Shown one piece after another: positions 15,088 to 19,777 of a stretch of DNA of 64,000 bases (position 1 is the stretch's first letter; each line of letters opens with the position of its first letter). The notes below the pieces were generated by a model. The model saw nothing but the letters and a program-made list of their open reading frames with translations, made no database searches and had not been told where the DNA came from. A program made the translations under genes and the position numbers. Origin of the DNA: Candidatus Saccharimonadales bacterium (GTDB lineage: Bacteria; Patescibacteriota; Saccharimonadia; Saccharimonadales; EFPC-124); assembly GCA_035457485.1 (NCBI GenBank), contig DATIBO010000006.1:242659-306658 (forward strand), in the 5' to 3' direction.

Positions 15088-16743
15088 ATGGTTATTTCAC
15101 ATGCGCAGACTGACGAACCCGATACTCAGCAGGAACTTACTAGCTTTGTAAAAATATTTTCGCTACTTGGTTTGATTGTGCTGGTTTTGTTTGGTGCTCA
15201 AAGCATTGCGTTTGAAGGCGACTACAGGGTAGGGTATTTTGAATTTATAGCCGGACTTATAATGGGGCTAAACTTTATTACCTTAAAAATTACCAAAAAC
15301 GTTAATGTTGCGCGCAATGTATTGCTGAGTGTATTGCTAGCAATTTTAATGATGATGCTTACGACTGGTGGCCTTCAGGGTACTGGTCTTTATTGGTTTT
15401 ATATTTTTCCGGTAACGGCATTTTTTGTTTCGGGCAAACCACGTGGAATAATCTGGGTTGCAATTTTATATTTGTTTACTCTTGTAGTTTTGGGTTTGGA
15501 TGCGGCTAAAGTTTTAAGTATTCCGTTTAGCGCGATGCAAGTAGTGCAAATGCTGATAATTTTGTTTATTGTGTCGTTCGCTATTTATGTTTATCAGCAG
15601 GTTCGCGAAACGGCAACATCTGCTTCTAAACGCAATAAAGAGGATCTTCAGACTGAACGAGTAAGAGTCGATGCTGTTGTAGAGAACATAGCCGAGGGTG
15701 TAGTTTCTTTGGACGTTGATGGTCGTGTTAATTTTATGAATCGCGCCGCCGAAGATATGTTAGGTTGGTGGCAGCATGACTTGCAAGGTAAAAAGTTTGT
15801 GAACGTTGTCAAAACGCAAAACGAGAACGGCAAAGAAGTTAAGATGGACGAATGGCCACTTGGTGCAAACAAAAAAGATAAAAAATCTACAGTTTTAAAT
15901 TACATAAAAAAAGACGGAACAAAGTCATTACTTTTAGCAAACGGCTCGCCTATCATGCGTGAAGGCGAGTGTGTGGGCTACGTTGCTAGCTTGCGTGACG
16001 TAGCAGAGGAGCGTGCGATTGAACGCGCAAAAAGCGAGTTTATGACCGTGGCGTCGCACCAGTTAAGGACGCCGATCTCGGCGATATCGTGGTTTAGTGA
16101 AATGTTGCTTAATGGCGACGCTGGAAAACTAAACGATGAGCAAGAACAAGATGTTACGCAGATTCATCAGAGCACGCAGCGAATGGCGCGTTTGGTTGGG
16201 GATATGTTAATTGTAGCGAGACTGGAATTAAATAATCTTCCGGTTGTGCCGCAAGCAATTAACCTGCCGGTGATGTTGCGTAAAGTTGTGAGGGAGCAGC
16301 TGGAGGGTATACCAGAAGGTCGACTGCCGAAGATAAAAGAGCATTTTGATCAAAACATATCAGACATTTATGTTGATCCTGAGATTGTAAAAATAATCTT
16401 ACATAACCTAGTTGGAAATGCCGTAAAGTACACCCCCAAAGGAGGTGATGTGTCGATCGAAGTGATTGGCAGTGGTAATGAACCTGACAGCAAACTGACG
16501 ATTATAGTGAGCGATAGCGGTTACGGAATTCCAAAAGCGCAGCAAGCCAAAATTTTTACCCGATTCTTTAGGGCTGAAAACATTCGCGATAAAGATACCG
16601 ACGGAACTGGGCTAGGTCTTTTTATTGTAAAATCGCTGCTAGACTACATCGGAGGTGATATATCGTTCACATCCGAAGAAAACCAGGGTACGATTTTTGT
16701 AGTGCATTTGCCCTATACCAAAACTATGAGTGGTAAAAAATGA
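15088..16743 (+). CDS. Sensor histidine kinase (polytopic membrane sensor, PAS, HisKA, HATPase_c)
   Basis: About 6 N-terminal TM helices, PAS-like region, H-box [13 protein letters not shown], G-boxes DSGYGIP and GTGLGL. Confidence 0.9.
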   Translation: [551 protein letters not shown]

Positions 16744-18947
16744 AACTTGTAACCAGGGTAGCAATAATAATTGCATTGGTGGCTGTACCGGCTGCAATCA
16801 TTGCCTTCTCTTTTGTCTATAATTTACTTCGCAACGAAATTATAAATCCATCAAAAAACGATCAGCTGACACTCACTAAAAATAATTTAAATACAGTAGA
16901 TAGATTTTTAGAGGAGCGTCAGGTTAGCATTGCGATTTTAGCTGATTCGCAAATTGCTTTAAATTTGGCCAACAATCCCAGTTCGACGCCAGATCTACAG
17001 GCGGCTACAAAAACCCTGTCAAGTTTCGTTGAAGGTACAGGTTACTGGGACTCGGTTGTGATGGTTTCGGGGAATGACCAGATCTTGGCATCGAGTTCAG
17101 CCGACAACTCCGAAATAGAGCAGACACTTAAACAGAATCAAGCGGTTGTCACTAAGGCGCTCGGTGGTGATACTACTTATAGTAATGAGTTTGTTGATCC
17201 CTCGGGAGACCAAACTATGATTTTTGCTTCACCGGTTCAAAATGGAACTGCGGTTATTGGGTTTATAAAATGGCGGGCAATTAGCGATGTTTTAGCGAGC
17301 CTGCCCGGTAATTTAATTGGATTATTTAATAGCGAGGGTAAGATGATCGGGTCGAGCGACCCCGAAGAAATCGTTGTACCTACGGCAGTAACGACCGCTG
17401 GTCAATCCAAAGAGGGTATCGAGGTGGAAACTTTAGATAATGAACAATTCATAGTTTCTTATACTTCGGAAACTGGATATAAAAACTACGCTGGGAACAA
17501 TTGGATCATGACAATTTCCCGGCCGGCCGCCGAGGTCTATACTGTTGCCGAACGTTTGCCTCGCGCTCTGATTGTTTCGTTCAGTCTTTCAACGCTGGGA
17601 GTGATGATCTTGCTCACTTTGTTTATTGCACGCTTGCTGCGCCCGATAAATAATATGACTACTACGGCTAACAAGATTGCCCTCGGTGACCTAACTCAGC
17701 GAGTACAGATTAGGTCTAGTGATGAATTTGGTCAACTTGGAAAGGCCTTTAATAACATGGCTGATCGGTTGCAGTTAATCTACAAAAACCTGGAGAGCAA
17801 AGTTCAGGAGCGAACTAACCAGTTAGCCCAAAAAGTTGATGAAGTAGAGCGTGAGAGAGCTAAAGATGAGGCGATTCTTTCGAGCATTGGTGAAGGTATG
17901 ATCGCGGTGAATGCGGACGGAACTGTCGCGATAGTTAATCGTGTAGCTACACAAATGTTGATGCTTGATGAAAATCAGGTAATCGGTAAACCTGTTTTAC
18001 AGGTTATGAAACTTTTGACCGGGGTTGGCCTACCAGTAATAGACAAAGAATCTCCAGTTGCACTTGCACTTCAAACTGGCAAAATGTCAGACGGTGTTTT
18101 TGGGATGCAAGACGAGCAAGGCAAGCGGCAGATTGCAATTGTTGCGAACCCAATTTTTCAGGACCGTAAGATTATCGGCGCCATTATGATTTTCCATGAC
18201 GTTACAAAAGAGCGCGAAATTGATCGAATGAAAACAGAATTTATTTCGCTGGCGTCACATCAGCTGCGAACACCGCTTTCGGCGATTAAGTGGTTTAGTG
18301 AAATGTTGATTAGTGGCGATGCAGGCAAACTTACCGAAGATCAAACAGAGTTTGCAAAAAATATTTATGCTTCAACCGAACGTATGATTGAGCTTGTAAA
18401 CTCGCTTCTTAACATTTCTAGGATTGAATCGGGCAGAATTATAGTTGATCCTAAGCCAACTGATCTTAAAGAGTTGGTAAATGGAATCGTTCAGGACCTT
18501 AAAGAGAAGCTGGAGCAAAAGCAGCAAACCTTAATAATTAGCGTTCACGAAGATTTAGGTAAGATTAATCTAGACCCTCGCTTGATTAGTCAGGTGTACT
18601 TAAACTTCCTGACTAACGCAATCAAATACACGCCCAAAGGCGGCGAGATATCGGTGTTTATTTCACGCAAGGGCGATGAAGTGGTATCGCAAGTTGCTGA
18701 TAACGGCTACGGAATTCCAAAGGCTCAGCAAAATCGTGTATTTAATAAGTTCTTTAGGGCTGAAAACATTGTTAAAGTTGAAACTGAGGGCACCGGGCTT
18801 GGACTTTATCTCGTTAAGGCCATAGTGGAATCTTCGGGCGGTAAAGTATGGTTCAGGAGTGAAGAGGGCAAGGGCACTAGCTTCTGGTTTAGTCTTCCAA
18901 TCACAGGAATGAAGGCTCGTGCTGGCGAAGTCTCGCTTGACGCATAA
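16740..18947 (+). CDS. Sensor histidine kinase (periplasmic Cache-like domain, HAMP, PAS, HisKA, HATPase_c)
   Basis: Two TM helices flank a ~250-aa extracytoplasmic domain. HAMP-like segment, H-box [20 protein letters not shown] and GTGLGL. ATGA overlap with the upstream kinase. Confidence 0.9.
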   Translation: [735 protein letters not shown]

Positions 18948-19431: not shown

Positions 19432-19777
19432 AGATGATCGATTTTTGACAAGCGCCTACAAAGCCAAGCTGGTTAGAAGCGGTTTTGACGTCCAGATTGC
19501 GTCCGATGGCGAAGAAGCGCTCGAGATTCTGAAAACCTTTGTACCCGATATAATTCTACTTGACCTTGTCATGCCGCGAAAAGATGGATTTGCAACCCTG
19601 GCCGAAATTAAACAACAAGAAGCTCTTAAAAATATTCCAGTAATTGTAGCGTCTAACCTTGGTCAAAAAGAAGACTTAGACAGAGCGATGTCGCTTGGTG
19701 CACAAGATTACATTATTAAGAGTGATTTGTCGATGGATGCGTTGATCGGCAAAATCAACGAAACGATTAAGGCATAA
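19409..19777 (+). CDS. Stand-alone response regulator receiver protein (CheY-like)
   Basis: MAKVLVVEDD, IILLDLVMP, VIVASN, K at YIIKS. Start moved to the ATG at 19409. No output domain. Confidence 0.85.
   Translation: MAKVLVVEDDRFLTSAYKAKLVRSGFDVQIASDGEEALEILKTFVPDIILLDLVMPRKDGFATLAEIKQQEALKNIPVIVASNLGQKEDLDRAMSLGAQDYIIKSDLSMDALIGKINETIKA

Follow-up and report, generated by a model that had tools for sequence, protein, structure and literature searches.

Cultivated Saccharibacteria use type IV pili (T4P) to move and to find and bind host bacteria (PMC9894109, PMC12206443), and the regulation of extension and retraction is an open question for the T4P of Patescibacteria (PMC12206443). Here we analyse a putative signalling module in a 64,000-nt stretch of a Candidatus Saccharimonadales genome (GenBank assembly GCA_035457485.1, contig DATIBO010000006.1, positions 242,659 to 306,658; hereafter the window, whose own numbering is used throughout). 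The module consists of two histidine kinases (HK1 and HK2) and two stand-alone receivers (the response regulators RR1 and RR2), encoded directly upstream of pilB, the gene of the pilus assembly ATPase. We found no description in the literature of such a kinase–receiver–pilB arrangement for Saccharibacteria, Patescibacteria, the candidate phyla radiation (CPR) or Omnitrophota. The nearest mention is one line on 'chemotaxis response regulators' that guide twitching, with nothing on kinases or synteny (10.1101/211649), and kinases and response regulators go unmentioned in the experimental work on the T4P of Saccharibacteria (PMC12206443, PMC9894109, 10.1101/2022.03.25.485537).

Described systems and how the locus compares

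The logic proposed here is that of the ColS–EmvR–PilB system of Xanthomonas oryzae, in which a classical transmembrane HisKA kinase is combined with a single-domain receiver on PilB: the response regulator EmvR binds ColS, binds PilB and lowers the ATPase activity of PilB (PMC11973254). EmvR, however, is encoded by an orphan gene away from pilB, and its kinase is shared with the DNA-binding response regulator ColR (PMC11973254), whereas the receivers described here sit inside the pilB operon, with two receivers, two kinases and no DNA-binding response regulator nearby; the likeness is one of logic. DrdR of X. campestris, a protein with tandem receiver (REC) domains, binds PilB and PilT (PMC13507683). 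It is an output-less double receiver on pilus ATPases, and REC-REC fusions are found among the Patescibacteria relatives of RR1 and RR2 as well. In DrdR the N-terminal REC is a pseudo-receiver, whereas here both receivers keep the phospho-acceptor aspartate and are separate proteins.

Two stand-alone CheY-like receivers, PilG and PilH, control the activity or localization of the T4P motor in the Pil-Chp system, possibly antagonistically (PMC10519157, PMC11656802); in Pseudomonas they steer the localization of PilB, and direct contact has not been reported (PMC11656802). PilG and PilH are fed by the CheA-type kinase ChpA together with a methyl-accepting chemotaxis protein (MCP) and CheW, whereas the kinases here are HisKA sensor kinases. 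The scanned open reading frames (ORFs) of the window gave no Pfam match to CheA, CheW or MCP, and the Pil-Chp components ChpA, PilJ (an MCP) and PilI (a CheW) are absent within the window. In Synechocystis, the T4P motor interacts with regulators of the PATAN-REC type (10.1101/2021.06.11.447907), and PilT2 is bound by Rre6 in its phosphomimetic form (PMC7656254), the contacts of PixG, PixH, PixE and Rre6 with PilB1, PilC and PilT2 being phosphorylation-dependent (10.1101/2021.06.11.447907, PMC11181946, PMC7656254). These systems use CheA-like kinases and PATAN-REC proteins, whereas Pfam finds no PATAN domain here.

Two further systems resemble parts of the locus. PilS–PilR of Pseudomonas, Myxococcus and Geobacter is a two-component system in the T4P cluster, and HK1 is PilS-like in its six transmembrane segments (TM), PAS domain and kinase core. 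PilR, however, is a sigma-54 activator (AAA+, helix-turn-helix (HTH)) that controls pilA transcription, whereas RR1 and RR2 are REC-only proteins without an output domain and no NtrC-type response regulator takes their place. In the HK853–RR468 pair of Thermotoga maritima (PDB 3DGE), as here, a HisKA kinase works with a stand-alone REC protein, but HK853 has the canonical His-Glu where HK1 and HK2 have His-Gln.

The kinase–receiver module

The module and the motor gene that follows it are made up of these genes:

15088..16743, plus strand: HK1, 551 aa, membrane-embedded sensor kinase with about six TM, MASE6-PAS-HisKA-HATPase_c, H-box ASHQLRTP (Pfam, hydropathy)
16740..18947, plus strand: HK2, 735 aa, TM-Cache-TM-HAMP-PAS-HisKA-HATPase_c (Pfam, hydropathy)
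18994..19431, plus strand: RR1, stand-alone receiver, 145 aa, REC only (Pfam Response_reg)
19409..19777, plus strand: RR2, stand-alone receiver, 122 aa, REC only, best start ATG 19409 (Pfam Response_reg)
19795..21495, plus strand: PilB-type assembly ATPase with an MshEN-like N-terminal domain and T2SSE (Pfam T2SSE E=9.5e-124)

The ORFs of HK1, HK2, RR1 and RR2 are all present at these coordinates on the plus strand (15088–19777), and the order of two kinases, two receivers and pilB, the domain make-up of the proteins and the absence of output domains, all as given in the initial annotation, were confirmed by the ORF check and by Pfam. These are real genes rather than chance ORFs, since identical proteins have been deposited (HSE29239–HSE29243, from a Candidatus Saccharimonadales metagenome-assembled genome) and homologues of RR2 number more than 1,000 at E <= 1e-10. 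The genes are closely packed: HK1 and HK2 overlap by 4 nt (ATGA), HK2 and RR1 are 46 nt apart, RR1 and RR2 overlap by 23 nt, and pilB and pilC are separated by 1 nt. The spacer between the RR2 stop and the pilB ATG (19795), which contains GAGGGTGG, measures 17 nt rather than the 18 nt first given. From HK1 through pilC all junctions overlap or span no more than 46 nt, and no terminator-like hairpin was found in any intergenic gap. The unit runs on past pilC through three prepilin-like genes, two ORFs without a Pfam match and a probable major pilin gene, and ends at 27439.

Residues 17–168 of HK1 contain five clear hydrophobic segments and one probable one with short loops between them, and the region matches MASE6. 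In HK2, an extracytoplasmic region of about 250 residues (about 26–277) lies between two TM and matches Cache_WalK and, weakly, dCache_1. The two kinases are 37% identical (E=5e-77) across PAS, the dimerization and histidine phosphotransfer (DHp) domain and the catalytic (CA) domain. Both retain the H-box histidine and match the full-length Pfam HATPase_c model (HisKA 62–66 bits and HATPase_c 97–104 bits in both), and so have the DHp domain with phospho-acceptor histidine and the HATPase_c domain of HisKA-class kinases. The closest solved structure to the kinase core is Thermotoga HK853 (E about 5e-41). WalK, PnpS and PhoR are the best NCBIfam matches of both kinases, and neither kinase qualifies as an equivalog of these: HK2 scores 315 against a cut-off of 725, 278 against 400 and 199 against 334, respectively, and the scores of HK1 lie below those of HK2 and under the cut-offs.

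RR1 and RR2 are 30% identical to each other and both keep the acidic pocket, the phospho-acceptor aspartate, the Ser/Thr, the aromatic residue and the lysine of stand-alone CheY-like receivers (alignment A1 shows no variation at D9, D52 and K104 and retains Ser/Thr and Tyr/Phe at their positions). The best 120 homologues of RR2 are all REC-only proteins of 120–143 aa. For both receivers the closest solved structure is RR468 of Thermotoga, the stand-alone partner of HK853; we know of no link between RR468 and pili. EpsW, CheY and DivK were rejected as equivalogs, all scores being below the NCBIfam cut-offs, and no chain described as PilG or PilH stands among the PDB matches listed, of which the nearest are RR468, CheY, CpxR and PleD.

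HK1, HK2, RR1 and RR2 are the only histidine kinase and REC proteins in the window. HTH proteins are encoded there too (see below), and 64 kb are too short a basis for the initial remark that the organism has very few regulators. Pfam scans of the window ORFs, those of the operon included, found neither an Hpt domain nor a hybrid kinase, and the locus is therefore a two-kinase, two-receiver two-component system; the term phosphorelay, under which it had initially been described, is wrong.

Conservation of the module beside pilB

The first survey of gene neighbourhoods was anchored on PilB and took one genome per species, giving 80 loci, mostly from Patescibacteria, 75 of them with at least 600 nt upstream. 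A REC-only gene was counted as adjacent if it precedes pilB on the same strand with fewer than 400 nt between its end and pilB. Such a gene stands directly upstream of pilB in 21 of the 75 loci, where the local REC density would predict about 0.9% (binomial p about 1e-25); the adjacency is thus about 30-fold above expectation and extends over several phyla. Where at least 3 kb of upstream sequence is available, a kinase gene is present too in 13 of 17 REC–pilB loci, and no locus of this survey has a kinase without a REC. By score, the pilB-adjacent REC is closer to RR2 than to RR1 in all 21 loci. Six further loci have a REC directly downstream of pilB, followed in four of them by a second T2SSE-family ATPase gene; counted over both surveys, a REC lies between pilB and a second gene of this family in 10 loci.

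According to submitter labels, the hosts of REC–pilB loci include Levyi-, Roizman-, Shapiro-, Wildermuth-, Nealson- and Gribaldobacteria and Saccharibacteria and, outside the CPR, four Omnitrophota and one Margulisiibacteriota. The arrangement was found in none of the Armatimonadota, Planctomycetia, Verrucomicrobiota, Bacillota and other non-CPR loci of the PilB-anchored survey. The label 'uncultured Gammaproteobacteria' on some third-party assemblies is probably unreliable.

The second survey, a metagenome scan anchored on RR2 with a profile built from four close sequences, also gave 80 loci. Among the closest relatives of RR2 (at least 53% identity; loci L082–L092), 8 of the 10 that could be evaluated read kinase, one to three RECs and pilB, with pilC next wherever the contig continues. 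A single REC-linker-REC protein of about 260–300 aa, its C-terminal half more RR2-like, replaces the two receivers in 8 of the 80 loci (L097, L102, L118, L121, L131, L134, L144 and L155), and these fusions suggest that the two receivers act together. An HQLRTP-type kinase gene, one or more REC-only genes and pilB–pilC on the same strand are found in the window, in L162–L164 (see below), in L082–L092, in L006 and L015, and in others. Synteny, which had been proposed as a check with its absence as the refuting outcome, is thus conserved in close and distant relatives, and a functional tie between the signalling module and the pilus motor genes is therefore well supported.

Orthologous loci in Saccharimonadales

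Three loci (L162, L163 and L164), labelled Saccharimonadales or Saccharibacteria where labelled, were obtained from RR2 homologues on long contigs. L163 has the same order as the window (MASE6 kinase, dCache kinase, RR1, RR2, pilB, pilC and pilins). In L164 the gene set is unchanged but the receivers are swapped, the RR2-like gene preceding the RR1-like gene (L164 positions 8001–9051), and L162 has one HAMP-PAS kinase and two unknown genes, then RR1, RR2, pilB and pilC. The receiver genes abut or overlap and lie no more than 73 nt from pilB in three of the four Saccharimonadales loci, the window included; the gaps in L164 are larger. Identities of the orthologues to the proteins of the window are as follows:

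RR1: 64–77% (L162–L164)
RR2: 69–78%
HK2 kinase core: 76–80%
PilB: 65–68%
PilC: about 50%
HK1: about 40% (40–41%, same position in L163 and L164)
HK2 sensor: about 27%

RR1 and RR2 are only 26–34% identical to each other's orthologues, which indicates that they are two old, separately maintained genes. Both receivers and the HK2 kinase core are under strong purifying selection. On these identities, the core of transmitter, receivers and motor is fixed and the sensors are free to change, i.e. a conserved output side with a variable input.

A family-wide H-box

The H-boxes lie at window positions 16050–16075 (HK1) and 18240–18265 (HK2), both contain HQLRTP, and the strings quoted for them in the initial annotation had been read correctly. 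An extended motif, K[TS]EF[IV]S[LI][AS][AS]...GD.G.L..EQ, is common to most kinases encoded in such a setting across Patescibacteria. Kinases canonically carry Glu or Asp right after the phospho-acceptor histidine; in HK1, HK2 and 67 of 74 kinases from this gene context the residue is Gln, and in 7 of the 74, including all four Omnitrophota kinases, it is the canonical Glu. HK1 and HK2 thus do not have the acidic residue right after the histidine that is otherwise characteristic of HisKA. This family-wide swap beside the phospho-histidine is of interest for the mechanism of histidine kinases.

The likeness of the two H-boxes had been taken as a mark of paralogy. HK1 and HK2 are indeed paralogues within a family, but the likeness does not point to a recent duplication: because the motif is widespread in this gene context, it reflects family constraint, and a recent tandem duplication is rejected as its cause, the motif being family-wide and HK1 and HK2 each having separate orthologues. 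Plausibly, the constraint reflects docking to the conserved receivers. Given the shared first DHp helix, HK1 and HK2 would probably address the same receivers, and this would support the earlier idea of a two-input system.

Proposed mechanism and alternatives

We propose that the four genes encode a two-component module dedicated to the pilus. Two membrane kinases from one Patescibacteria-wide family would respond to different inputs, HK1 to a PAS signal of intramembrane or cytoplasmic origin and HK2 to a ligand of its extracytoplasmic Cache domain, and both would set the phosphorylation state of the CheY-like RR1 and RR2. Output-less receivers act by binding other proteins, and protein contact is proposed because neither RR1 nor RR2 has an output part that would bind DNA or act as an enzyme. 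The receivers would act on the co-encoded T4P motor, most likely on the PilB ATPase and possibly on PilC or on a retraction ATPase whose gene lies elsewhere. The conserved effector close to the motor would be RR2; RR1 might be another effector, might work as an antagonist or might serve as a sink for phosphate. Outside signals would in this way probably reach the motor through contacts between proteins and not through changes in gene expression. The motor is named as the target because of the conserved adjacency to pilB, the RECs between two ATPase genes, the REC-REC fusions and the lack of a conserved DNA-binding neighbour. Gene context and precedents in other phyla lead us to infer direct action on PilB, or on pilus extension; that each kinase passes phosphate to RR1 and RR2 and that these bind PilB, and whether the effect is positive or negative, are likewise matters of inference. 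We hold receiver-to-motor control by this pilus-dedicated module to be moderately probable.

Several observations weigh against this reading. No REC stands directly upstream of pilB on the same strand in 54 of the 75 loci of the PilB-anchored survey. Distant members with a kinase and two RECs (many of L098–L147) mostly precede fpg/mutM (MPELPEVET...) rather than pilB, and the module may have other or additional targets; in several of these loci a T4P-type ATPase gene (pilB or another of the T2SSE family) lies 3–6 kb upstream on the opposite strand. PilT, PilM and PilD were not found by Pfam scans of the window ORFs. A promoter-like site lies inside the unit, upstream of RR1 (18937–18966), and it is from spacing alone that we infer co-transcription. 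With His-Gln in place of His and an acidic residue, kinase activity is also unproven.

The receivers might instead act indirectly, by binding a transcription factor, a sigma or anti-sigma factor or another adaptor encoded elsewhere and thereby changing the expression of pil or other genes. Single-domain receivers are established to use many kinds of partner, this module is also found away from pilB, and possible partners are at hand in the window, i.e. the HTH proteins YebC (2502–3215), HxlR (54304–54654) and an HTH_3 protein (40929–42638), and a SpoIIAA-like protein (52733–53110). However, no DNA-binding partner is conserved beside the module in about 160 loci, and the 10 loci in which a REC is flanked by pilB and another ATPase gene of the T2SSE family fit motor-level control better, so that we consider an indirect route unlikely.

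The enrichment of REC–pilB adjacency across several phyla and the packing of the receiver genes close to pilB (73 nt at most) in the window, L162 and L163 argue against a general-purpose Patescibacteria two-component system, of an envelope or nutrient type like WalK or PhoR, that shares the pilus operon only in some lineages. Such a system would be in keeping with the best NCBIfam matches of both kinases, with the WalK-like architecture of HK2, with the same family of kinase and two RECs beside fpg/mutM in many loci and with the cell-wall enzymes (Peptidase_S11 and YkuD) that come after the pilin genes. Yet the scores for WalK, PhoR and PnpS fall far under the equivalog cut-offs and an OmpR-type partner is absent; we regard this alternative as distinctly improbable. 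A pilus-state feedback in which HK1, with six TM and, like PilS of Pseudomonas, no external domain, would sense the membrane pilin pool and the pilus would be input as well as output, an add-on compatible with motor control, is suggested by likeness of architecture only (about six TM, PAS, HisKA and HATPase) and by the place of the gene in a pilin operon, but the membrane domain matches Pfam MASE6, homology to PilS is not shown and L162, which has no HK1, still has RR1–RR2–pilB; we regard this feedback as very improbable.

For receiver control of the pilus motor, the class of mechanism is known from elsewhere, and the receiver–motor logic itself would not surprise a specialist; what we propose as new is its conserved, hard-wired form with classical kinases in ultra-small bacteria. 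The locus and its conservation name candidates for pilus control, four small genes with easily mutated residues (the kinase histidine and the receiver aspartate), and the open question of pilus regulation becomes testable, direct contact between receiver and motor being predicted. More tentatively, and as a possibility that we think doubtful, the HQLRTP kinase with RR1 and RR2 could be an ancestral, widespread and perhaps the main module of Patescibacteria, dedicated to T4P, in which lineage-specific sensors would read host or surface cues and the receivers would act antagonistically on PilB, PilT and PilC. If this were true, it would amount to PilG/PilH-like steering of an organelle of attachment and predation without a chemosensory array, and to a control point for host attachment in episymbionts.

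Transcription signals and other genes of the window

The features around the module are listed below:

14918..14993, minus strand: tRNA-Pro(TGG) (ARAGORN), the upstream limit of the unit
15053..15080, plus strand: weak promoter-like sequence TTAACT-16 nt-TACAAT, a candidate only (consensus scan)
21497..22543, plus strand: PilC-type platform protein (two Pfam T2SSF matches; NCBIfam GspF/PilC)
22544..23014, plus strand: prepilin-like protein, 156 aa (N_methyl motif)
22998..25511, plus strand: 837-aa prepilin-like protein, large, carrying beta-propeller repeats of the LVIVD type, a candidate adhesin of the pilus tip (N_methyl and LVIVD, Pfam)
25508..25996, plus strand: prepilin-like protein, 162 aa (N_methyl)
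25993..26907, plus strand: two ORFs of 127 and 176 aa without a Pfam match (ORFs of the same size at the same position in L163 and L164)
26960..27439, plus strand: prepilin of 159 aa, probable major pilin (best N_methyl score, 36.6 bits)
27458–28663, downstream of the pilin genes: Peptidase_S11 (Pfam)
28647–30086, downstream of the pilin genes: YkuD (Pfam)

Because the tRNA gene occupies the opposite strand just upstream, transcription of HK1 must start within 14994–15087. In the region 15053–15087, the −10-like element stops 7 nt short of the HK1 ATG, without a visible Shine-Dalgarno sequence, which hints at a possibly leaderless HK1 transcript; the scan behind this promoter-like site is not above chance. 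The consensus scan for promoters and terminators covered 13400–28800, where the number of sites equals that in shuffled sequence and is uninformative on co-transcription.

The NCBIfam GspE/PilB matches of PilB lie under the equivalog cut-offs. Its residues 1–160 (window 19795–20280) form the MshEN-like domain (Pfam, 38 bits). By eye, this domain lacks the Arg-Leu-Gly...Gln that we take to be the c-di-GMP-binding motif of MshEN, and it could instead be a docking site for the receivers. The 837-aa protein with LVIVD repeats has equivalent genes in L162–L164, and relatives have versions with PA14 and LVIVD. In the 176-aa protein no membrane segment is obvious, and it might serve the pilus as an accessory protein in the cytoplasm.

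A second group of genes at 6663–10858 comprises recA–recX, a PRC-barrel gene, a PilB-like ATPase of 448 aa (8991–10337) without the N-terminal domain and one prepilin, and resembles the 'T4P locus 2 with recAX' of strain TM7x (PMC12206443). No receiver gene lies beside this second PilB-like ATPase.

The HTH_3 protein mentioned above is a 569-aa ORF (40929–42638, minus strand) in which an XRE-type HTH_3 domain (residues 76–127) is joined to an EPSP_synthase/MurA-family domain (139–556), and is either an unusual fusion or an ORF with an over-extended start. A gene for an IrrE-like M78 peptidase lies near it, at 43989–44591.

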